Shown in pieces: positions 268 through 28,622 of a stretch of DNA of 37,256 nucleotides. The stretch comes from a virus (Duplodnaviria > Heunggongvirae > Uroviricota > Caudoviricetes): the IMG/VR virus record IMGVR_UViG_2537561978_000007; one strand, given 5' to 3'. The position numbers were made by a program, and so were the translations under genes. How positions within the stretch are numbered: the stretch's first letter is position 1; the number at the start of each line of letters is the position of its first letter. The notes beneath the pieces are model-generated. The model ran no database searches and was not told where the DNA came from. It saw nothing but the letters and a program-made list of their open reading frames with translations.

Positions 268-300
268 AAGCCCTCGCGTTGAGGGCTTTATTGATTTTTT
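268..300. terminator. Rho-independent terminator between convergent grxA and ybjM
   Basis: Stem AAGCCCTC (268-275), loop gcgtt, stem GAGGGCTT (281-288), then TTATTGATTTTTT. Confidence 0.5.
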
Positions 301-665
301 CTGTGCTGTGGTTTAAACAAACTACTGATAAATAAGAAACACAATGCCCCCAGCGCACACCAGAACACCGCACTTAATAACCATGCCAGCTCTTGCCAGA
401 ATGAGCGCGTCGGTGAAAAAAACAGCCGCATAATGAGCATCGAACAGGGTGCCGCCAGCATTGCGCCAAACAGAGGTTTCAGGACTTCTCTACGATGTGA
501 AAAGAAGCTGGCAACTGCACCAGGAAGAATGAAAAATAGCAAACCGATTTCAGGATGCCCGGCAGCCCGAAAAGCGCCTTTCATGTGCGTCGCCAGAAAA
601 AGACACACCACAATGAAGAGGACAAAACAGCAGATTGCCCCCGCCCAACGTTGTTTATGTTTCAC
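288..665 (-). CDS. ybjM: Inner membrane protein YbjM
   Basis: 125 aa, strongly hydrophobic with multiple predicted TM helices; length and position between grxA and ybjL match the E. coli gene order. Confidence 0.75.
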   Translation of the reverse strand: MKHKQRWAGAICCFVLFIVVCLFLATHMKGAFRAAGHPEIGLLFFILPGAVASFFSHRREVLKPLFGAMLAAPCSMLIMRLFFSPTRSFWQELAWLLSAVFWCALGALCFLFISSLFKPQHRKNQ

Positions 666-934: not shown

Positions 935-2620
935 GTGAATATAAACGTCGCCGAATTGTTAAATGGGAATTACATTCTGTTATTATTTGTGGTCCTCGCG
1001 CTTGGGCTATGTCTCGGGAAATTACGACTTGGTTCGATCCAACTGGGTAATTCCATTGGCGTTTTAGTCGTATCGCTGTTATTAGGCCAACAACATTTCA
1101 GCATTAACACCGACGCGCTTAATCTTGGCTTTATGCTGTTTATTTTCTGCGTCGGGGTCGAAGCCGGACCGAACTTTTTTTCCATTTTTTTTCGCGATGG
1201 GAAAAATTACCTAATGTTAGCACTGGTGATGGTTGGCAGTGCGCTGGTGATCGCCTTAGGGTTAGGTAAGCTGTTTGGCTGGGATATTGGCCTGACGGCC
1301 GGTATGTTAGCTGGCTCTATGACGTCGACACCGGTTCTGGTCGGTGCTGGCGATACACTGCGTCATTCCGGCATGGAAAGCAGGCAGCTCTCACTGGCAC
1401 TGGATAATCTGAGCCTCGGGTATGCCTTAACCTATTTAATCGGTCTGGTGAGTTTGATTGTTGGTGCGCGTTACTTGCCGAAATTGCAGCATCAGGACTT
1501 ACAGACCAGCGCCCAGCAAATCGCCCGCGAACGTGGCCTGGACACTGATGCCAACCGTAAGGTTTATTTACCGGTGATCCGCGCCTACCGCGTCGGCCCG
1601 GAGCTGGTGGCCTGGACCGACGGCAAAAATCTGCGTGAACTGGGTATTTATCGACAAACTGGCTGCTACATTGAACGTATTCGACGTAACGGGATTCTGG
1701 CGAATCCAGACGGTGATGCTGTGCTACAAATGGGCGATGAAATAGCGTTGGTAGGCTATCCCGACGCCCACGCACGACTCGATCCCAGCTTCCGTAACGG
1801 CAAAGAAGTTTTCGATCGTGACCTTCTCGACATGCGTATCGTCACTGAAGAAGTGGTCGTTAAAAACCATAACGCCGTGGGCAAACGTCTCGCACAACTG
1901 AAGTTGACCGATCACGGTTGCTTCCTTAACCGCGTCATTCGTAGCCAGATTGAGATGCCGATAGATGACAACGTCGTGCTTAACAAAGGTGACGTTTTAC
2001 AAGTCAGCGGCGATGCCCGTCGCGTAAAAACCATCGCCGATCGCATCGGCTTTATCTCGATTCACAGCCAGGTCACTGACTTGCTGGCATTCTGCGCCTT
2101 CTTTGTTATTGGGCTGATGATCGGGATGATCACCTTCCAGTTCAGCACATTCAGTTTCGGCATGGGGAACGCTGCCGGGTTGTTATTCGCCGGAATTATG
2201 CTGGGATTTATGCGCGCTAACCACCCGACCTTCGGTTACATTCCGCAGGGTGCATTAAGCATGGTGAAAGAGTTCGGCTTAATGGTGTTTATGGCAGGCG
2301 TTGGTCTGAGCGCCGGTAGCGGTATTAATAACGGCCTAGGCGCGATTGGCGGTCAGATGTTGATTGCCGGATTGATTGTCAGTCTTGTGCCAGTGGTTAT
2401 CTGTTTCTTGTTCGGTGCTTATGTATTGCGAATGAACCGCGCACTGTTGTTCGGCGCAATGATGGGCGCACGCACCTGCGCGCCGGCAATGGAGATCATC
2501 AGTGATACAGCTCGCAGTAACATCCCGGCGCTGGGCTATGCGGGCACCTATGCAATCGCCAACGTCCTGCTGACGCTGGCAGGGACAATCATCGTCATGG
2601 TATGGCCAGGATTAGGATAA
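935..2620 (+). CDS. ybjL: Putative transporter YbjL (AAE-family permease with central soluble domains)
   Basis: 561 aa; hydrophobic N- and C-terminal halves flanking a soluble middle; N-terminus [20 protein letters not shown] as I recall for YbjL. Confidence 0.85.
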
Positions 2621-7821: not shown

Positions 7822-8250
7822 CGTTGGCCCCGCTTCTCTGAATCGCTTTATACCGCCATTCCAGCACTTCGGTCAGCGCCATAACGTCAGTAACGGATGG
7901 CGGCCAGTGAAAGATGGTGGCGATATCAGCCACCAGATCGTCAACCGTCAGGCTGTCGGTAAACCGGCAAGCACCGACTTCTTCAACAAAAAAGTGACAA
8001 CCTCAACCGACATGGCAGTGAGATCTGCCGGGTCCATCTCTGCAATTTCCTGTGCAGTCAGTGCCGGACTGGAGATGCGGGGGATCACGGTCATCATCGC
8101 GTTCACATCCATATCCATAATGGCCTGCAGGCGTGTACCGCGCAGCGCACCGGACTGCGGTTTACGCAGCACAATTTCGGTAATTTCTGTTTTACCGCGC
8201 TTGATAGGGGTATCCAGTTGAATGGTCTTTTCAGTCTGCTTATCGCTCAT
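7814..8250 (-). CDS. Tail assembly chaperone E+E' (programmed -1 frameshift product)
   Basis: Slippery TTTTTTG at 7986-7992 (minus strand); the -1 frame continues ...VEEVGACRFTDSLTVDDLVADIATIFHWPPSVTDVMALTEVLEWRYKAIQRSGANDE and stops at 7814, overlapping the T start codon. Confidence 0.65.
7948..8250 (-). CDS. E: Tail assembly chaperone E
   Basis: 100 aa, P2 gpE-like; contains slippery heptamer T_TTT_TTG near its 3' end. Confidence 0.85.
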   Translation of the reverse strand: MSDKQTEKTIQLDTPIKRGKTEITEIVLRKPQSGALRGTRLQAIMDMDVNAMMTVIPRISSPALTAQEIAEMDPADLTAMSVEVVTFLLKKSVLAGLPTA

Positions 8251-8304
8251 TTTGTTGTCCTGTAAATTGGGTTCTGGCGCGGCATTCCGCGCCGTTCAGA
8301 TACA

Positions 8305-8820
8305 TCAGAGGCCGAGAGCGTTGCGGTGCGCTTCCATCAGGTCCACACCGTCCACAATTTCCACCATGTTGATAAGGTCCACTTCATAGAGCACCTCACC
8401 ATTGATGGTCAGCTTCGCGTAGCTGTTGGTACTGGTCACTTTGGTGGTGTTGCTTTCGCCCGTCTTCCACTCACCGGAATCCACTTCTTTGTGACGTCCA
8501 CGCACCACAAGCTCCACGGCCTGCACTTCCCCGGTATCGTCACGCTGGATAGAGCCGGTAAAGCGCAACTGGATGCCATCCACCGTGGCTTTGCCTATCT
8601 GCTTAAACAGCAGCAGTTCAGTACCACCAATGGAAAATTCTGTGTCCAGCGCACTGTCATCAAGCCCCAGATCCACATCCACTGCCCCCGGCATTCCGCC
8701 GCCGCGATACTTCTCATATTTGCGGGTGAATTTCGGCAGCGTCAGCGACTCAACGATCCCCTGCCAGTTGTTCCCGTCGTTAAACAGGTTCAGGTGTTTT
8801 AATTTGCGTGGTAAAGCCAT
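8305..8820 (-). CDS. FII: Major tail tube protein
   Basis: 171 aa; P2 gpFII-like (MALPRKLKHLNLFNDGNNWQG...). Confidence 0.9.
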   Translation of the reverse strand: MALPRKLKHLNLFNDGNNWQGIVESLTLPKFTRKYEKYRGGGMPGAVDVDLGLDDSALDTEFSIGGTELLLFKQIGKATVDGIQLRFTGSIQRDDTGEVQAVELVVRGRHKEVDSGEWKTGESNTTKVTSTNSYAKLTINGEVLYEVDLINMVEIVDGVDLMEAHRNALGL

Positions 8821-8829
8821 GTTGTCCCC

Positions 8830-10002
8830 TTACGCGCTGACCTGGCTGGCGAAATTCACCAGGTACTGATCGGTGATGCGCTGACGCAACATCAGGTTTT
8901 CAAGTGGCGGCACTGGCGTGTAGTCGTAGTCGATGGTGAGTTTTCCGGCTTTCAGAGTGTCTTTGTCGTTCACCGACTCATCCAGCCAGCAATCACCACC
9001 AATGAGATACCCCTGACTGACCAGGCTGCGCATTTTGGCGCGGATGCCCTCGATAATGTCGCGCGCCAGCGACGGGTTCAGCGGTTTGTCCACTGCCCAC
9101 ATGTGCGCTTCTGCCATTGTGTCCGTCAGCACCTGCGCCGTGCGGGTGTAGTTTTCGAAGGCAAAGAGCGGGTCATCACTCAGGCAGCGGGAACCCCAGA
9201 AGCGAAAACCGTCTTTGCGGATAAGGGTGGTGACGTCGTTCTGGTTCAGCAGTCCCGCATCGCTTGCCGGGTCCTGCAGATCCCAGAACACATCAGCAGA
9301 AATTCCGGTGACACCGTTAACGCCTACGTTGGACAGGCTTTTGTGCCATCCGGTCTGCTCGTCAATTTTGGCGCGCAGACCAAGCGCACGGGCGGTGGCA
9401 TAAGCCGTTGCTTCGGCATTCAGCACCGTGTCCCAGCCAGTAAAGTCGGGCCAGATCAGCATTCCTTCACGCTGACTGAAGTTTTCACGGTAAGTGATTG
9501 CTTCCTGCACCGTCTTGCAACCATACGCTGACAGGTAAGCAAATCCACGCAGGCTTTGCGCCACGCTCAGCAACTCAGTAGCTACCGCCTTCGTGTCGTG
9601 ACCTGGCACGCCGAGAATGCGCGGTTTAACGCCGAGCTGTGACTGGGCAGATAACAGGGCTTTCATGCCTGTTTTTTTACCTTCAGCAGTCACTGCGCCG
9701 ATGATATTGGTCGTGGTTTCTTCTTCCGTTTCACCCTGCGGCACACGCACAACAACGGTCACGGGTTTTGCCTGGTCAGCGATGGCATCCAGCGAACGGG
9801 CCAGCGTACCGGACTCGCCCGCTTTACCGCTGGCAGTCAGCACATCAGTGATCAGCACGGGTTTATTAAGAGGAAACATTTTTGCATCGGCATCATCGCC
9901 CGTGCAGACCATACCCACGATGGCGGTGCTCACCGTGGTAATGGATCGGGTGCCTTCGTTGACTTCAACAACGCGCACTCCGTGGTGGTAATCCTGAGCC
10001 AT
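8830..10002 (-). CDS. FI: Contractile tail sheath protein
   Basis: 390 aa; P2 gpFI-like ([19 protein letters not shown]...). Confidence 0.9.
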
Positions 10003-10144
10003 AGTGGCGAACCTCCTGATTGGATTAGGCTTCGCCCTATGTTGAAGTGATTGTGCCTGACAAACAGCTAAGCGCAGTTGTACCGTTATTCACACAAAAT
10101 GACGGTATTTGTCTGCTTTCAGGGATAATCAAAATAAAGCTGAT

Positions 10145-10717
10145 TCAGGGAGATTCATTGCTCTTATTTGCCGGAAATTTTCTATAAATGGTAGAAACGC
10201 CTACATCAAAAATCAGTGCAATACGCTGTCTTGATTCTCCGGCCTCGAGTAAACGCCCAATCTGTGCCCACTGTTCGGTAGTCAACTTAGGACGGCGTCC
10301 ACCTACTCTGCCTTTAGCACGAGCTGCAGCCAGCCCTGCCCTGGTACGTTCAACTATCAGTTCGCGTTCCATTTCAGCCAGGGCACCCATGACATGAAAA
10401 AAGAAACTGCCCATTGGGGTACTGGTATCAATACTGTCAGTCAGACTTCGGAAATTCACGCCGCGCTGGCGCAACTCTTCTATCAGCGTAACAAGATGCC
10501 GCATACTGCGCCCCAACCTGTCCAGCTTCCAGACAACCAGTGTGTCACCTGCCGATAGTGTCCTGAGCAGTTTTTTAAGCCCCGGTCTGTCGGACTTAGT
10601 GCCACTGATTTTGTCCTCAAAAATCCGCTCACATCCCGCGCAGTTCAGCGCACTACGTTGCAAATCGGTGTTCTGGTCATTTGTTGACACGCGTACATAG
10701 CCAATAAGCATGATCAT
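10145..10717 (-). CDS. Serine-recombinase DNA invertase (Pin/Gin/Hin/Cin family)
   Basis: 190 aa; resolvase catalytic region IGYVRVSTNDQNTDLQ and C-terminal HTH; very similar to my recollection of e14 Pin; sits at the P2 Z/fun position beside an invertible segment; true start may be the Met at 10711. Confidence 0.9.
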   Translation of the reverse strand: MIMLIGYVRVSTNDQNTDLQRSALNCAGCERIFEDKISGTKSDRPGLKKLLRTLSAGDTLVVWKLDRLGRSMRHLVTLIEELRQRGVNFRSLTDSIDTSTPMGSFFFHVMGALAEMERELIVERTRAGLAAARAKGRVGGRRPKLTTEQWAQIGRLLEAGESRQRIALIFDVGVSTIYRKFPANKSNESP

Positions 10718-10766
10718 CTCCTTGAATAAAAACCGGGGATGATGCCAGTTAGTCGTAATCGCTGCA

Positions 10767-10792
10767 TTTTCTTAAACGTTGGTTTAGGAGAA
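10767..10792. repeat. Invertase crossover site (left), hix/gix-like 26-bp site
   Basis: Minus-strand reading TTCTCCTAAACC-AA-CGTTTAAGAAAA; 15-bp perfect inverted repeat TTGGTTTAGGAGAAG (10779-10793) with the site inside gene H. Confidence 0.6.
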
Positions 10793-11137
10793 GCGGCGAA
10801 AAGGGATGTGGGCACAGGAGATAATCAGATACCGGATATGTCTTTCTGGTCTTCCGCATCGGGTGGCGTTAATTTCCCTAATGGATTCCAGATGCGATTC
10901 GGTGCTATCGCTGGTAATGGTGGAAAATTATTTTCTACGCCATTTACAAATCAGTGCTATGGCATTGTTTTCGGACAAACATATGGAGCCAACTACTGGA
11001 TGTTCAGCCCGATGTACAGAGCATCTGATCTGAGTAATACCAGTTTTGCATTCATTAACAAAGCCTGGTCTGGAATTCCGGGGACAGGTGCTCAGGACGC
11101 TGGTGAATCAGTTTTTTATATTGCAGTAGGGTATTAA
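10781..11137 (+). CDS. Alternative (currently unexpressed) tail-fibre C-terminal variable segment
   Basis: Frame continues from the crossover-site motif LGLGE shared with gene H (H: AYLGLGEG; here VGLGEAAK); no independent start expected, becomes H C-terminus after inversion. Confidence 0.55.
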   Translation, partial: GLGEAAKRDVGTGDNQIPDMSFWSSASGGVNFPNGFQMRFGAIAGNGGKLFSTPFTNQCYGIVFGQTYGANYWMFSPMYRASDLSNTSFAFINKAWSGIPGTGAQDAGESVFYIAVGY

Positions 11138-11138
11138 T

Positions 11139-11582
11139 ATGGAAATGGTTTATAGCGCCTCAAATAATAGTTTTTTCGCTAAAAATGATGTGGCGAAATA
11201 TGAACAGGCCGGATGGGAACTTGCTGATATTGTCGAAGTGACATATGACACTTACCTGGAATTTATTGAAGACAGAACGTTGCAAGGGAAAGTACGCATC
11301 GCGGGTGATGATGGCCTTCCCACCTGGGGGGAAATTCCACCGCCAACTCATGAGGAACAAATTGCCGCAGCCGAACTGGAAAAGCAGCAATTGATTAATC
11401 AGGTCAACGAATACATATACAGTAAGCAATGGCCTGGTAAAGCAGCGATTGGTCGCCTGAAAGGTGAGGAACTGGCGCAATATAATTTGTGGCTGGATTA
11501 TCTGGACGCACTGGAACTGGTTGATACCTCCAGTGCTCCAGATATTGAATGGCCTACGCCTCCGGCAGTTCAGGCCAGATGA
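11139..11582 (+). CDS. Alternative tail-fibre assembly chaperone (Tfa/U'-like)
   Basis: 147 aa; C-terminal tfa motif ...DYLDALELVDTSSAPDIEWPTPP paralleling the minus-strand tfa (...DYIDAVTATDTSTAPDVIWPELP); 3' ends of the two tfa genes overlap convergently. Confidence 0.7.
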   Translation: MEMVYSASNNSFFAKNDVAKYEQAGWELADIVEVTYDTYLEFIEDRTLQGKVRIAGDDGLPTWGEIPPPTHEEQIAAAELEKQQLINQVNEYIYSKQWPGKAAIGRLKGEELAQYNLWLDYLDALELVDTSSAPDIEWPTPPAVQAR

Positions 11583-12156
11583 CGTCCGGCGCTGTGCTGG
11601 TATCTGTTGCCGTCACCGCATCAATGTAATCCAGCACAGCGTTAAGTCGGGTGTTTTCTGTCTGCGTCAGCTTCCGCCCGGCCTGCAATTTCAGTTGAAT
11701 CAGACTAATGGAAGCCATTGCAGTATCAATCAGTGACTGACGCTGTGCTTCTGCCGCGTCTAGTGTGGCGCTATGCTGTGCCTCAGTATCTGTCACCCAT
11801 TTCTCACCATCCCATTCATCGTATGGCGTTAACGGGGCGATAGTGGTTGTATTTTCAGGGTAATCACCTGGTGCTGTGATTTCTTTTGATTCTCCTGTTT
11901 CGGTGCTAAAAACGATTTCACCGCGATGGTCTGGCACATATTCCCATGAGTTAAAATCTGCAGAACGGCAGATTGCATAACCAGCTTTACATGTAACTGG
12001 TGAATCTAAACAGGAATATGCAGGGATACCGACACCAATGGCAAGATATTCATTTGAAGTAGAAATATATTCCCGAGTTTTACCATCATAGTTATAGACG
12101 GTAATATTCCCCGCCTTCGTGGCAATAATCTCGCTATTTAATACGGCGTTATCCAT
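11554..12156 (-). CDS. G: Tail-fibre assembly chaperone (gpG/Tfa), active orientation
   Basis: 200 aa; immediately downstream of H; conserved tfa C-terminus. Confidence 0.8.
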   Translation of the reverse strand: MDNAVLNSEIIATKAGNITVYNYDGKTREYISTSNEYLAIGVGIPAYSCLDSPVTCKAGYAICRSADFNSWEYVPDHRGEIVFSTETGESKEITAPGDYPENTTTIAPLTPYDEWDGEKWVTDTEAQHSATLDAAEAQRQSLIDTAMASISLIQLKLQAGRKLTQTENTRLNAVLDYIDAVTATDTSTAPDVIWPELPEA

Positions 12157-13619
12157 TATGCAGCCCTTACGATATAGTTAAATGCAATATTTCGTGGACG
12201 GGTTTCGCTTCCGCCATATGATGATGTAAATCCCGAATATGCCCGGTGTCCCGCATCCGTCGTATTAGCCCAGGAAGGACCGCTAGAAGTATAGATGACC
12301 CCATTGTAATCATGGCCGTGTGCCTCAATGCTCCCGTCCTGAGCAGACAGGAGAGTCCGTCCTGAATCAATTCCTCTTCCATCATCCCACCCACGAATGA
12401 ATTCGCCGCGTAAATCTGGCAATTTATTTGTCGGATAAACTTTTGCCAGTTCCGGATACTCTTCGGCAGAAAAAGCTGCACCGTTGCATTTCAGCCAGCC
12501 TGTTGGCGGTGTGACTGAAGGCCACGGAACAGGCACACCTACGGGTAATGCAGAGCCTTCTCCTAAACCAAGGTATGCGAGAAGACCAGCAACATCCTTT
12601 CCACTCAAATTAGTCAGCGTATTGTCCAGCGGTTGTTTACCTGCTAGCGCATTAAGCATTGTCGTGGCAAAGTTCGGGTCATTCCCCAGCGCCGCCGCCA
12701 GTTCGTTCAATGTATCCAGTGCCGCAGGTGCAGACCCCACCATTGCTGCAATCGCCGATTTCACAAAAGCCGTAGTGGCAATCTGTGTATTGTTAACCGA
12801 CTGTGCGGCAGTAGGGGCTGTTGGCGTTCCGGTGAGTGCCGGACTCGACAGCGGCGCTTTCAGTGCCAGCGCATTGTTAATGGTGGTACTGAATTTCGGA
12901 TCATTGTTAATGGCTGCGGCTATTTCTTTTAGCGTGTCCAGCGTGGCTGGCGCACCATTAATAAGGGCCGTCAGTGCCGCCTGAACAAACGCGGTGGTCG
13001 CAAGTTGCGTGGTATTATTCCCCGCCGCTGGCGTCGGCGCTTTGGGGGTTCCGGTAAATATCGGGCTGGCTTTTGGCGCATACTGTGAATGTGGGTCCGC
13101 TGCGGCAAGGTGTTTTGCCATTTGGTCATCCACATACACCTTCAGCTCCAGTGCCTTATCATCCACATACTTGCGAGTTGCCAGTACTACAGCAGGGTCG
13201 ATTTTCAGGGTGATATTGTCCGTACTGCTGGTAATCAGCACCATGCGCACGGTCTGGGTACGCCCGCTGCCTTCAGCCAGTTGCGGCTTATAGCTTTCCG
13301 GGCAGTTTCCCACGGCAATCAATACCCCGGACTCATCAAACAGGCCCACTTCACGTATCCACCAACCACCCTCATTTTCAGGGATCACCTGTTCAGCAAT
13401 AATCTGGCTGCTGTTCTGCGGGTCGATATAGAGCATATTCAGCGCAGCCCGGCGTTTCTCATTTACCAATGCTGTCTGCTTGGCGTCCGGCGTTGGCAAT
13501 GTTCCGCCGCCATCGCCGACCGCCATATGGGTAATTTTTAAAGGCACACCGAGCGCGGCGGCGCTGGCGAGTTTCGCCGCGCCAATATCCGTCAGCAGGG
13601 TATAAAATTTTGTGCTCAT
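12156..13619 (-). CDS. H: Tail fibre protein H (constant N-terminus plus currently linked variable C-terminus)
   Basis: 487 aa; P2 gpH-like N-terminus (MSTKFYTLLTDIGAAKLASAAALG...); crossover site embedded at codons for LGLGE. Confidence 0.85.
   Translation of the reverse strand: MSTKFYTLLTDIGAAKLASAAALGVPLKITHMAVGDGGGTLPTPDAKQTALVNEKRRAALNMLYIDPQNSSQIIAEQVIPENEGGWWIREVGLFDESGVLIAVGNCPESYKPQLAEGSGRTQTVRMVLITSSTDNITLKIDPAVVLATRKYVDDKALELKVYVDDQMAKHLAAADPHSQYAPKASPIFTGTPKAPTPAAGNNTTQLATTAFVQAALTALINGAPATLDTLKEIAAAINNDPKFSTTINNALALKAPLSSPALTGTPTAPTAAQSVNNTQIATTAFVKSAIAAMVGSAPAALDTLNELAAALGNDPNFATTMLNALAGKQPLDNTLTNLSGKDVAGLLAYLGLGEGSALPVGVPVPWPSVTPPTGWLKCNGAAFSAEEYPELAKVYPTNKLPDLRGEFIRGWDDGRGIDSGRTLLSAQDGSIEAHGHDYNGVIYTSSGPSWANTTDAGHRAYSGFTSSYGGSETRPRNIAFNYIVRAA
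12558..12583. repeat. Invertase crossover site (right), hix/gix-like 26-bp site inside gene H
   Basis: TTCTCCTAAACC-AA-GGTATGCGAGAA; same architecture as hixL (12-bp half sites around a 2-bp core). Confidence 0.6.
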
Positions 13620-14221
13620 GGATTCACTCTCATTGTGTCAATAACATGGACCGCTCCGCCTTCATGCGCGGTGCCGCCGGAAATAATTGTTTCGTTGATA
13701 TACGGATAGATCGTGATTTCTTCGCCAAGATAGCTGGCAGCTCCCACCCAATGCGGGCCGCTGGTCTGCAGGTTGATGGACATGCCGATCATGTGACGGC
13801 TACATGGTTTGGCATCGCTTATCAGTCGCTCAAGTTCCAGATAGGTATCTTCAGTGATGCCCTGGTCCTGCACGCCGATATCCAGACGAAACGTGCCCGG
13901 AGTCTCTCCGGTCTGCCACCACTCAATAATGCGGATCAGAAAGCCGAACGGCTCCACCACCCGCCGCACGGCACTGGTGGTCCCTTTATGCTGATGAATA
14001 TAAAAAGCATCCTTCACCACCTGGCGCTTGACGCTTTCTGTCCAGCCCTCGTCCCAGCGATCCACAGAGAACGCCCAGGCGAGATAAGGCAGGAAACTGA
14101 CCGGACAGGTTGCCGGATTCCACAAGTCACGCAGCGGCACCTGCAGATCAGAAATCCCGCTACAGGTCTGCGCCAGTCGGCGCTCCAGTGAAGTTGAACC
14201 CAGTGGCAGCAGACTATTCAT
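13616..14221 (-). CDS. I: Baseplate/tail protein I
   Basis: 201 aa; P2 gpI-like; 4-bp overlap with H start. Confidence 0.85.
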   Translation of the reverse strand: MNSLLPLGSTSLERRLAQTCSGISDLQVPLRDLWNPATCPVSFLPYLAWAFSVDRWDEGWTESVKRQVVKDAFYIHQHKGTTSAVRRVVEPFGFLIRIIEWWQTGETPGTFRLDIGVQDQGITEDTYLELERLISDAKPCSRHMIGMSINLQTSGPHWVGAASYLGEEITIYPYINETIISGGTAHEGGAVHVIDTMRVNP

Positions 14222-16136: not shown

Positions 16137-16191
16137 GGTTAGAGGTTAGAGGTTAGAGGTTAGAGGTTAGAGGTTAGAGGTTAGAGGTTAG
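16137..16191. repeat. Perfect heptanucleotide tandem repeat (GGTTAGA) x7 plus a partial copy
   Basis: Read directly: ggttagaggttagaggttagaggttagaggttagaggttagaggttag; intergenic between gene V and the OLD-like cargo gene. Confidence 0.95.
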
Positions 16192-16225: not shown

Positions 16226-18184
16226 TCAATTAAACTTTACAGGTTTATCACTTATAAAAAAATTTTCAATTTTGGCAATCCACTCTGGCCTTTTCCGCTC
16301 ATTTCGCTCACAGATTGAAATATATTCCTTTGAAAAATCAAACTTAATTCCTTCACGGTCAAAAAAAGCATCAAGCGTTTTTTTGTTCTTGGGTGACAAA
16401 TCCATCGCAGCAAACGATGAATGTCTTTCATCTATCATAACATTACTATTAGGCAGCAATGCCTGAAGCTCAGGAAAACGTGAAGAAAATGATGTTAAAG
16501 CCTCTATAAACGATACAGGATTAAGACAATCCTCTATTTCTGTTGCAGGAGAAACTGGATTGGAAGAAATATCAACCAACTTCACTGAATCACCTACACT
16601 AACAATTCGCTTACAAACAACATGCGGCATAACTGGGGTATCATATGACACCAACTCTGAATCTGTATCGGTTAGTAAGAACACTTTTCCTTTGAGGTCT
16701 TTTTTGAACTCTTCATAAGAAGCTTCTAAATGCTTAAATATTTTTTTAACTTCACTAGCTCCCCCTACAGGCACAATCCTTAGCCTTTTATTTTCTACCA
16801 AGTCCTTTAGATAATGCGAAAGATATATTTTTTCTGTAGTACCCTCACAAATCAACCAATTGTAAGGTTTCTCAGCCAAACAGCTAGATATTATGGATTG
16901 TATAAGGTCATTTACACTTTTTATTTTTATATCAAATGGCATACCCGGGGAAGAGGTTTTTACTTTCTTCCTGACTTCTTCTCTATAACTGGCAAGATCA
17001 TATAATTCAAAATGATGAGTTGAATCTGTTTTAAGGATAGTTGTGGTACATCCATTTTCGACGGTTGGAAGATAGCCATACCAATGTGAAGTAAATATTA
17101 ATTGTTCACATATACCACTAATAGAATAGAGCTTTTCAAATTGTTCAAAACATGCAGACATATGAAGAGAACATTCTGGCTCATCAATTCCAATAATCAG
17201 ATTATCGCCATTTTCTCTATGATTGGTAAGAAACCCATATGCAATATCCATTATTGCACGTTGCTTCTCCCCTGAACTTAGCGAGCTAATTTCAATCCAA
17301 CCTGAATTCTGCTTTTTATTTAATTTCCTAACTTTGAAGAATGCTTCGATAATCAAATTATAAACATCTTTCTTTTTTAATCGCGATTGTCTCTCGCCAG
17401 ATGTTCTATAACCATATTCTTCAAGCTCCTCTTCAACACCATCCAGAAATTTGGCAAGCCCTGTATTGATTTGACTTATGGTTCTATCAGATATTCTATC
17501 TTTAATTATCTGCTCTAAAGACTCACCCATCAACTTTTGTACTTCACTTGTTTCTAGCTTCGTAAACGATTCAGAGTCTATATCCTTTGGAATATATATA
17601 TATTCATACTTATGGCGGACATGATGTAATAAATACCCAAAGTGCTTACTAAGCAACTCGCTCGAAACTTTATTATCGGGATTATCAACCTCCAAAAGTC
17701 GACATAAACTCTTCCCATTAAGAATCGAAATACTTACATCACCATCTTTCTCGACACCCAGAGGGATCAAAAAATAATCTTGGAGATTTAAATTTCTTTT
17801 TAATTTGTTAATATGTTCAAAAAACGTATTAATTATATTTCGTGTTGTTGGCGTCAATGTAACATCAGCATTACTATTGCTATATTCTAATACTAATTGC
17901 GTTAAGATTTCAGCTTTAGCATGATGATCTTCATGTAATTCCTCTCGCTTTATAAGATATAAAGGAACAATATGTGGAGAAGGTCTGTCACTGGAGGTTC
18001 TTTTAAATGAAGAATTAATATTCCATGGTTTGTTATTAATAAACGAATCTAAAGCCTCAAGAACAGAACTTTTGCCAATTCCATTGTTACCAACAATTCC
18101 ACAAAACTGACTTCCAGAAGATAACGGTATGTAATGATTTCCGTTGTATGTTTTAAAATACCTTAAAAAAATCCCTACTATCAT
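16226..18184 (-). CDS. OLD-family ABC-ATPase/Toprim nuclease (class-1 OLD-like or fused PARIS-like); anti-phage defence candidate
   Basis: 652 aa; Walker A GIVGNNGIGKSSVLEAL; ABC signature-like LSSGEKQ; Walker B/D-loop LIIGIDEPECSLH; H-loop TSH; C-terminal Toprim motifs ICEGTTE and LLTDTDSE; aligns by eye to P2 Old (LVGYNNAGKS, FIDEPELYLHP, LLVEGKTE, ADCDF); strongly AT-rich relative to flanking phage genes. Confidence 0.75.
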   Translation of the reverse strand: MIVGIFLRYFKTYNGNHYIPLSSGSQFCGIVGNNGIGKSSVLEALDSFINNKPWNINSSFKRTSSDRPSPHIVPLYLIKREELHEDHHAKAEILTQLVLEYSNSNADVTLTPTTRNIINTFFEHINKLKRNLNLQDYFLIPLGVEKDGDVSISILNGKSLCRLLEVDNPDNKVSSELLSKHFGYLLHHVRHKYEYIYIPKDIDSESFTKLETSEVQKLMGESLEQIIKDRISDRTISQINTGLAKFLDGVEEELEEYGYRTSGERQSRLKKKDVYNLIIEAFFKVRKLNKKQNSGWIEISSLSSGEKQRAIMDIAYGFLTNHRENGDNLIIGIDEPECSLHMSACFEQFEKLYSISGICEQLIFTSHWYGYLPTVENGCTTTILKTDSTHHFELYDLASYREEVRKKVKTSSPGMPFDIKIKSVNDLIQSIISSCLAEKPYNWLICEGTTEKIYLSHYLKDLVENKRLRIVPVGGASEVKKIFKHLEASYEEFKKDLKGKVFLLTDTDSELVSYDTPVMPHVVCKRIVSVGDSVKLVDISSNPVSPATEIEDCLNPVSFIEALTSFSSRFPELQALLPNSNVMIDERHSSFAAMDLSPKNKKTLDAFFDREGIKFDFSKEYISICERNERKRPEWIAKIENFFISDKPVKFN

Positions 18185-27087: not shown

Positions 27088-27534
27088 CTAAGATTCTGTC
27101 GTTGTCTCTAATGAACACCAAGCATTAATTCCCATTTTTGAGACAGCTATCAACATAATTACTACAGCTGGAGCAATAAATGTTGCTGTTGCCCCCAAAG
27201 AACCCGCAATTGCCGAAGAGATCACCCCTACAAAGTATGTTTTAACATCACCAGTCAGTGCTCCTAAACATTCCCTCTCCTCTGCATATTTATCACCTCC
27301 ACATACAAAAGCCTTAAACTCTAATTTAAACTGCTCAACAAACGCTTTTCTTCCCGGCATTTTTGAATTATCACCGCCAAATTGAGCAACTGAACTTGGG
27401 CCAGATGCAGTTAGCCATAGCTCAAGAGCCTTTTCTTCATCGCCATTTTCGAGAAAATTCCTGACAGATGAAGATTGATACGTTTTTAAAGTGGACAACC
27501 AAGACTCAGCATCTTCATTTGGTATAGCAATCAT
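27088..27534 (-). CDS. Small tail-anchored membrane protein, unknown function (cargo gene 2 of the protease cassette)
   Basis: 148 aa; soluble acidic N-terminus, C-terminal about 40-residue hydrophobic Gly/Ala-rich hairpin (YFVGVISSAIAGSLGATATFIAPAVVIMLIAV); ATGA overlap with upstream protease gene; AT-rich. Confidence 0.6.
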   Translation of the reverse strand: MIAIPNEDAESWLSTLKTYQSSSVRNFLENGDEEKALELWLTASGPSSVAQFGGDNSKMPGRKAFVEQFKLEFKAFVCGGDKYAEERECLGALTGDVKTYFVGVISSAIAGSLGATATFIAPAVVIMLIAVSKMGINAWCSLETTTES

Positions 27535-28178
27535 AACATATCCTTAACATATTCTGCAGAAACCGCATAAGTTGTCTGATGTAGTTCAGCTGGATTAATA
27601 CCTCCAACCAAAACAGAACCTCCAGAATTATTTGCATAAGCGCCAACCAAGACGCCTATTACCGAGTCATTTTTTAAATTAAATACAATCGATCCCGATT
27701 GACCAGGTCTGGTTTGGATATTTATAACGGCATGTTTAGATTGAATATTACTGCTTGAAAGTAAAACTTTTGCACCTATTTTTGCCGTTTGAAATGTCAA
27801 TACTTTTCTATTTTCATTACAATGTGGGAAACCTAAAATACCCACATCTTCACCGACATTAACATCGTCAAGAGTAGCAATTTTTAGGCAAGGTTCATAA
27901 ACAGGTGCATTTTTAATTTTTAACACACATAAGTCTTTTATTGGATCTTCATCAATAACATCAACTCCAATACATTGAAATTTATCAACACTTGTATCCT
28001 GATAACTATTAAAGTTATTTATATTAGATGGAGAAATAACTAAGTTAGAAGAAAACCCATTAATAACATGGCGGGAAGTAATTATTTTATCCTTAGAAAT
28101 AAAAAAACCTGTTCCTAAAAAACTAACCAAACCTGCATTAAGCACGCCAACAACTACGACATATTCAGGACCAATCAT
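27531..28178 (-). CDS. Trypsin-like (S1/Trypsin_2-type) serine peptidase, cargo gene 1
   Basis: 215 aa from the Met at 28178, with GGAG 6 nt upstream; catalytic-triad contexts GTGFFISKDKIITSRHV (His), DPIKDLCVLKI (Asp), TRPGQSGSIVFN (Ser); AT-rich. Confidence 0.7.
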   Translation of the reverse strand: MIGPEYVVVVGVLNAGLVSFLGTGFFISKDKIITSRHVINGFSSNLVISPSNINNFNSYQDTSVDKFQCIGVDVIDEDPIKDLCVLKIKNAPVYEPCLKIATLDDVNVGEDVGILGFPHCNENRKVLTFQTAKIGAKVLLSSSNIQSKHAVINIQTRPGQSGSIVFNLKNDSVIGVLVGAYANNSGGSVLVGGINPAELHQTTYAVSAEYVKDML

Positions 28179-28261
28179 AACAACTCCATTCTGTAATATG
28201 TTATGGACTCTGACTAAGACAATACTTAACCAAACCGTGAATATCAAGGTGCAAGCGCGCG

Positions 28262-28280
28262 CTCGTATCCCCGCCACGCC
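28262..28280 (-). other. Candidate cos cohesive-end sequence
   Basis: Minus-strand GGCGTGGCGGGGATACGAG; the first 13 nt match the P2/186 cohesive-end start GGCG(A/T)GGCGGGGA as I recall it; GC-rich island between Q-side cargo and the early region. Confidence 0.45.
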
Positions 28281-28622
28281 TGCCCGCTTTATGTAGTGGT
28301 TTTCATGCAGGAGCATGATCTACGCAAAAGCCCGCCAGTTCTGGCGGGCCTTAGCAAAAACGATCCTCAAACGATCATGCAATCTCATGCAGCATAGACA
28401 TGCACAGACGAGTAAAGCGAATCGGACTTTACGCAAGGTGAACTCCTCAGCGGGCATAATCAGTATGTCGGAAGATCTCTAAAAATAAATAATTCGGTTA
28501 ACAGGTATGCTTACAAAAGCATATATTTGATTAAAAATCATGTAAGGGGGAGGATCTCAAACTGAATCGCCACGGGTTTTACAAATTTCGATAGTCTCTC
28601 TAACGTTTCGGCTGAGGTCAAA

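Follow-up and report, generated by a model that had tools for sequence, protein, structure and literature searches.

Analysis of the 37,256-nucleotide viral sequence IMGVR_UViG_2537561978_000007 (hereafter the window, meaning the whole stretch of DNA that was analysed) revealed what is very probably a site-specific inversion switch of the Din family, situated in the tail-fibre operon of a P2/Fels-2-like prophage integrated beside the gene ybjL. The parts of the switch and their geometry were found in the sequence, the fibre gene H is fused in frame to a different tip in each of the two orientations, and both states occur in nature. From the exchange of tips we infer that the two orientations differ in host range. 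The elements of the module are given below in coordinates of the window.

10145-10711, minus strand: DNA invertase of 188 aa, a small serine recombinase of the Gin/Cin/Pin/Hin (Din) group
10767-10792, plus strand: crossover site L, proximal to the invertase, TTTTCTTAAACG TT GGTTTAGGAGAA, core dinucleotide at 10779-10780
12558-12583, minus strand: crossover site R, inside H, TTCTCGCATACC TT GGTTTAGGAGAA, core at 12570-12571
10781-12569, no strand assigned: invertible segment, 1,789 bp between the core dinucleotides
12156-13619, minus strand: tail-fibre gene H, 487 aa, interrupted by site R at codons L350-G-L-G-E354
12572-13619, minus strand: constant part of H, residues 1-349 and the first base of codon 350, outside the segment, with a Phage_tail_fib N-terminal domain (4e-65)
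12156-12569, minus strand: variable part A of H (tip A), GLGE (residues 351-354, also encoded by cassette B) and residues 355-487
10781-11137, plus strand: silent tip cassette B, GLGE and 114 further residues
11139-11582, plus strand: tail-fibre assembly gene B, 147 aa, Caudo_TAP (3.5e-30), junction TAATATG
11554-12156, minus strand: tail-fibre assembly gene A, 200 aa, TfaE-like, Caudo_TAP (7e-32), junction TAATG

The open reading frame (ORF) of the invertase spans 10145-10717 on the minus strand; RefSeq places the start at its third residue (M3, ATG at 10711), and the identical RefSeq protein, WP_000905071.1, is 188 aa long. Invertases of the Din family measure about 185-195 aa and combine a catalytic domain at the N-terminus with a helix-turn-helix at the C-terminus, and the window protein agrees with this description in size, domain layout and catalytic residues. 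It carries the Pfam domains Resolvase (E=8e-53) and HTH_7 (E=1.5e-15), aligns over residues 1-184 with the Gin chain of crystal structure 3UJ3 (E=3e-91), and keeps R7, S9, D64, R65 and R68 (Gin numbering) within a full-length ORF. Its closest characterised relative is PinE of the E. coli K-12 cryptic prophage e14 (84% amino acid identity), followed by Cin (76%), Gin (72%) and Hin (about 65%).

The best inverted repeat within positions 8000-14000 pairs 10767-10793 with 12557-12583, the arms lying 1763 nt apart. Sites L and R, which fall within these arms, are 26-bp elements of 12+2+12 layout in inverted orientation, with the same TT core and identical inner halves; compared pairwise, the arms have 15 identical bases in common, and both sites can be aligned with cix, pix, gix and the Fels-2 sites. 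A 19-nt core pattern, allowing up to three mismatches, matched exactly L and R in the 37 kb and none of 100 shuffled sequences. A multi-site shufflon or a multiple inversion system of Min type was also considered, and was rejected because the window holds only these two sites at that threshold. The core of site R coincides with positions 2-3 of codon L350 in H, and its inner half-site codes for G-L-G-E; site L lies inside a 132-codon ORF (10739-11137, plus strand) that encodes GLGE in the same frame.

When the stretch 10779-12571 was reverse-complemented in silico, H read in frame into cassette B to give a protein of 468 aa, H' (...LAYLGLGEAAKRD...VGY), in which residues 1-350 of H are joined to the cassette; residues 1-354 are thus common to H (487 aa) and H' (468 aa). 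In the window orientation cassette B has neither a start nor a promoter of its own. These results bear out the initial annotation of the locus, which had described a Pin/Gin-type invertase next to a segment of about 1.8 kb bounded by inverted 26-bp hix/gix-like sites, one of them embedded in H at the LGLGE codons, and had placed within it two alternative fibre C-termini and two convergent assembly genes. It had also located the module at the Z/fun position, and this is where it lies, between the fibre genes and the sheath gene FI, at the place occupied in P2 by fun(Z). The proposal had been made to depend on the alternative C-terminus being in frame with H after inversion, as it proved to be.

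We also observed that RefSeq treats the silent cassette inconsistently: in SF-468 the counterpart of window positions 10739-10850 is recorded as a pseudogene (truncated, 'hypothetical protein'), whereas strain 10035004-3 has it as a complete 'phage tail protein'. The RefSeq product names for H and H' likewise differ according to orientation.

The two tips differ in their relatives. Tip A contains a Pfam Collar domain (E=1.3e-13, residues 361-408) and matches the T4 gp37 tip 2XGF (E=1e-15) as well as short tail fibres; together with the 200-aa chaperone it has 87-90% DNA identity to stfE/tfaE of e14 and stf/tfa of HK97. Tip B matches the PHROG tail-fibre families phrog_1396 (1.7e-24) and phrog_2557 (4.2e-23), and its best full-length match among 50,697 phage records, to the short fibres of SfII and SfV, reaches 32% identity; tip B is rare among sequenced phages. 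We collected 673 homologues of tip B, mostly short cassette-like ORFs from Enterobacteria, the distant ones bearing PF21882 (gp53-like domain). A search by sequence among solved structures returned no match for tip B or for either chaperone, and in NCBIfam neither H and H' nor the chaperones had a model specific to them, while the invertase gave matches below threshold only. An AlphaFold model of tip B, built from 34 sequences and of moderate quality (predicted local distance difference test score 67.5), has as its nearest structures gp53 of AP22 (E=2e-4, TM 0.48) and, in R1/R2 pyocin fibres, the foot domains. The switch therefore appears to exchange two unrelated types of receptor-binding tip, one collar/gp37-like by sequence and the other gp53/R-pyocin-foot-like by predicted fold, an arrangement that would fit a host-range function without proving one.

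Each alternative tip has its own assembly gene directly after it. Assembly gene B begins 1 nt past the stop codon of cassette B, and the start of assembly gene A overlaps the stop of H in the sequence TAATG, so that gene A would be expressed together with H in the window orientation. The two Caudo_TAP genes are convergent and overlap by 29 nt at their 3' ends. Assembly gene A has 88.8% DNA identity to e14 tfaE and its neighbours.

Prophages that are otherwise nearly identical carry the segment in either state, and the junction falls precisely on the core dinucleotide. We compared 5,426 complete E. coli genomes with the 2,601-nt region in its native and in-silico inverted forms; at 100% identity and 100% coverage seven genomes carried the window orientation and four the inverted one, so the locus is not confined to a single orientation, which the initial annotation had named as the outcome that would speak against its proposal. 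The inverted window (6.1-16.6 kb) gave a gap-free alignment of 9,796 nt, with a single mismatch, to avian pathogenic E. coli (APEC) 16-1068. The native window aligned to the same locus only piecewise, in three parts of which the central one was on the opposite strand, the inner breakpoints coinciding with the core. In a collection of 15 billion proteins exact H was present on 375 contigs and exact predicted H' on 39, the longest H' contig measuring 5.2 Mb; such counts reflect assemblies, which show only the majority state of a culture.

A recombinational enhancer is likely to lie in the 5' end of the invertase gene, as its sequence suggests.

10622-10693, minus strand: putative Fis-dependent recombinational enhancer, nt 19-90 of the invertase gene, at its 5' end

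This region contains two 15-mers of Fis-like sequence whose midpoints, 10682 and 10634, are separated by 48 bp; the midpoint of the nearer one is about 98 bp away from that of site L. Both fit KNNYRNNWNNYRNNM, reportedly the Fis consensus of Huebner and Arber from 1989, at 7 of 7 positions. They lie at nt 23-37 and 71-85 of the gene, as do their counterparts in gin, cin, pinE, fin and the invertase genes of two Peduoviridae phages, and the P1 record annotates an enhancer at nt 19-90 of cin. Since the region codes for a conserved protein, this conservation is not independent evidence. Only four pairs of Fis-like sites at 48-bp spacing occur in the whole window, and a strict G-N13-C definition of the Fis site gave an ambiguous picture. 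Din inversion depends on Fis, HU and supercoiling, and inversion of the present segment would accordingly be expected to depend on Fis. Between site L and the ribosome-binding site of the invertase we noted a weak terminator-like hairpin followed by TTTATT (10731-10750, minus strand), a consensus match only, which might insulate the invertase from transcription leaving the segment.

The mechanism that we propose is as follows. Dimers of the invertase would bind both 26-bp sites and, with Fis occupying the enhancer at the 5' end of their gene, would assemble into an invertasome; cutting at the TT core and strand exchange would then flip the 1.79 kb. With transcription entering from outside the segment, H would read into tip A, the T4 gp37-like collar tip, and then into the TfaE-like 200-aa chaperone gene when the segment lies as in the window, and into the gp53/R-pyocin-foot-like tip B and then into the gene of the 147-aa chaperone when it is flipped. 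The particles released by a lysogen population would carry one or the other of two unrelated receptor-binding tips, and the phage would thereby hedge their host range. The catalyst would presumably be the adjacent invertase rather than one acting in trans.

Several observations weigh against this proposal. The invertase differs from its 98%-identical cluster representative by N20S, R102S and I144T, the first two at positions where Gin, Cin, PinE, Hin and Fin all have N and R; position 102 is R in 112 of 116 close homologues. A simple scan upstream of the invertase found no sigma-70-like promoter. When seven 42.6-kb loci were aligned with orientation normalised (four A, three B), the single-nucleotide polymorphisms were all singletons, the only shared variation was the copy number of a 7-bp repeat, and the three B-orientation loci fetched (of four such genomes) were all Australian; a single, recent historical inversion therefore suffices to account for them, and repeated flipping is not demonstrable from this set. 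Moreover, Din invertases work in trans on one another's sites (PMC12529663), so that orientation polymorphism is no proof of activity of this particular copy. The switch could accordingly be real while its own invertase is crippled or attenuated by N20S/R102S, flipping being left to the Pin-type invertase of another prophage or confined to rare past events. Besides the substitutions at two near-invariant positions and the lack of phylogenetic support for repeated flips, this account can draw on the skewed census (375 against 39), on the finding that most genomes with any match carry several related places (median two per genome), and on the reported action of PinQ, PinR and PinE on the e14 P segment and of Fin on the Salmonella H segment (PMC12529663). 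We nevertheless consider it unlikely, as the catalytic residues are all intact in an ORF of full length, and the exact S20/S102 allele is present on 673 public contigs of the protein collection and is identical in all 11 complete genomes, of both orientations; at least one inversion must thus have occurred while this allele was present. Position 102, which by our own alignment would correspond to K105 of gamma-delta and Q105 of Tn3 at the start of the oligomerisation helix E, is variable among resolvases and is not catalytic, the start of helix E being a region that controls activation. In the literature on the Hin mechanism that we searched, Hin R103 and N21 go unmentioned. It is conceivable, if quite improbable, that the S20/S102 allele is a natural regulatory variant, attenuated, biased or Fis-independent, which imposes a slow skewed switch or leaves control to invertases in trans, and that the choice between H and H' matters to the lysogen. 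Were this so, the allele would set the skew seen in assemblies (about 9:1) or would yield control to trans-acting prophage invertases, and the H/H' choice might also affect the lysogen, for instance through a block of adsorption against other phages as reported for StfE2.

A benefit to the lysogen, instead of or besides phage host range, has in fact been described for the homologous e14 P segment, where the chimeric fibre StfE2 blocks adsorption of other phages (PMC12529663). The close DNA identity of tip A and its chaperone to e14 stfE/tfaE agrees with a similar role here, as does the gp53-like fold predicted for tip B, given that StfE2 was compared with AP22 gp53 in the same study. We judge such a role very improbable in the window, since H is part of a P2-type late operon that appears complete, in a prophage that appears intact, and should be silent in a repressed lysogen, and since the silent cassette lacks a promoter or start of its own. 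Short-read assembly often gets invertible regions wrong, and the arms share 15 identical bases, so the two database orientations might in principle reflect assembly artefacts or RecA-dependent recombination between short inverted repeats. This is scarcely credible: the evidence comes from 11 complete genomes, exact H' is present on 39 contigs of up to 5.2 Mb, and the inner breakpoints fall on the 2-bp core of 26-bp sites that are canonical and have a dedicated invertase next to them. An identity of 15 bases is, besides, very short for efficient RecA recombination. A Din-family switch in the P2/Fels-2-like tail operon thus stands as our preferred explanation of the locus.

Among characterised systems the closest is the P segment of e14 with its invertase PinE. 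The e14 pix sites, TTTTCATAAACG TT GGTTTGGGAGAA and CTCTCGAAAACC TT GGTTTGGGAGAA, are near-identical to those of the window and have the same TT core; the outer half of site L is one base off the outer half of the invertase-proximal pix (TTTTCATAAACG). The e14 segment is of the same size (1,797 bp; PMC12529663), likewise contains a convergent tfa pair overlapping by 29 nt, and likewise has its invertase transcribed away from the segment with the 5' end beside a site, and tip A and TfaA of the window have 87-89% DNA identity to stfE/tfaE. The two loci differ in that e14 is what remains of a lambdoid prophage, defective and with its fibre gene truncated, whereas the window module sits in a complete P2-type tail operon; the tip of cassette B and the N-terminal part of its chaperone have no DNA match in e14.

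The same layout in a P2-type backbone is found in the Fin module of Fels-2 (Salmonella LT2; Felsduovirus), which has the same order and strands, with FI, the invertase, a silent H cassette, converging G-like genes and H-I-J-W-V. Fin is about 84% identical to the window invertase; Fels-2 differs by its TC-core sites, its longer cassettes and a distance of about 2.7 kb between sites. Its inversion has been seen between LT2 and LT7, next to fin (Zaworski et al., PMC7953296). Wadgaonvirus 500465-1, Peduovirus magyaro, Elveevirus Cartapus and the record of Klebsiella phage KP12 also share this layout, and the sites in all of them, Fels-2 included, are of 12+2+12 form. In the P2-like prophages of enteropathogenic E. 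coli (EPEC) E2348/69, deep sequencing and PCR showed that both states of tail-fibre inversion coexist in clonal cultures (Goldberg et al. 2014, PMC4272514); by their published description these loci are similar to ours, with hin-homologue invertases and inversions of about 1.8-2.2 kb, but one of them has three repeats and four variants, while the window has two sites only. A 2024 preprint likewise reports that the Z/fun hotspot of P2 often holds a DNA invertase with adjacent genes inverted (bioRxiv 10.1101/2024.10.15.618418). The P2/186 backbone, which the initial annotation implied to be new for such a switch, is therefore no novelty: the arrangement recurs in Fels-2, Wadgaonvirus 500465-1, Peduovirus magyaro and Elveevirus Cartapus, and flipping has been published (PMC4272514, PMC7953296, bioRxiv 10.1101/2024.10.15.618418).

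The G segment of Mu with Gin and the C segment of P1 with Cin follow the same logic, with a constant Sc part outside, Sv/Sv' and U/U' inside, 26-bp gix or cix sites and, towards the 5' end of the invertase gene, an enhancer. Their segments measure 3 kb in Mu and 4.2 kb in P1, their phage backbones differ from that of the window, and in P1 cin reads towards the segment, with cixL overlapping the cin 3' end. Shufflons of the R64 type also swap the C-terminus of an adhesin by DNA inversion, but they use the tyrosine recombinase Rci, many sites and a pilus adhesin, in contrast to the serine invertase and two sites described here. The switch type is therefore already well known, including in P2-like phages, and the window holds a further member of it; what is particular to this locus is the rare tip B and the S20/S102 allele of the invertase.

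The surroundings of the module are those of a P2/Fels-2-like prophage lying beside the E. coli host genes ybjM and ybjL.

288-665, minus strand: ybjM, host gene
935-2620, plus strand: ybjL, host gene, aspartate:alanine antiporter

Because 935-2620 is host ybjL, the left end of the prophage must lie between about 2620 and the ogr-like gene. A reading of 935-2620 as phage cargo, suggested by a match to phrog_4489, was rejected, as the gene is that of the host permease, ybjL; since the family matches ybjL along its whole length, phrog_4489 probably derives from host DNA at prophage borders. From the ORF map, PHROG matches and the RefSeq annotation of the identical locus, the gene order is of P2 type (ogr, D-U-T-E-FII-FI, H-I-J-W-V, S-R, lysis genes, L-M-N-O, P-Q, A, cI, int), and the window is syntenic with Fels-2 and P2, in agreement with the gene order that defines Peduoviridae. 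The prophage appears to be intact and its late operon V-W-J-I-H complete. In P2 itself fun(Z) fills the gap between G and the pF promoter of FI; in the window this gap is taken up by the invertase and the second cassette pair. A TGT-N12-ACA motif, TGTGTGAATAACGGTACA (10079-10096, minus strand), was noted between the stop codon of the invertase gene and FI, upstream of the FI start by 77-94 nt. In form it matches the activator site for Ogr/B in the late promoters of P2/186, so that the F operon has probably kept a late promoter of its own downstream of the invertase.

Two further loci of the prophage carry putative defence genes.

16226-18184, minus strand: ATPase gene, 652 aa, AAA_15 and OLD-like TOPRIM; top PADLOC matches AriA (1e-21) and Old (2e-11)
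27088-28316, minus strand: candidate defence pair PDC-M35, a 261-aa trypsin-like peptidase (PDC-M35A, 8e-94) followed by a protein of 148 aa (PDC-M35B, 4e-58)

With the gpS-like gene on one side and the gpV-like gene on the other, the ATPase gene fills the orf30 cargo slot of P2. It probably encodes an anti-phage nuclease of OLD/PARIS type; in APEC 16-1068 it is broken in two by a 1-nt deletion. The PDC-M35 pair is found at the old/tin hotspot, where the portal gene and the replication region flank it. The gpV-like and ATPase genes are separated by a tandem array of the 7-bp unit GGTTAGA (perfect, 7.9 copies, 16137-16191), and its copy number differs by 7-bp steps (n to n+3) across otherwise near-identical prophages.

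For practical purposes the locus calls for attention in annotation and genome comparison, as annotation pipelines label the silent cassette a pseudogene or 'hypothetical protein' and name H differently in each orientation, and as assemblies of this lineage, including the O1:K1:H7 APEC strains, will differ at the locus for trivial reasons. Two natural, swappable receptor-binding tips, each with its chaperone, on a P2-type tail may also be of use in the engineering of phages and tailocins. For basic biology the weight of the finding is small: it adds one more well-formed, probable example of the classic phage host-range switch to a family in which such switches are annotated already and known to flip.

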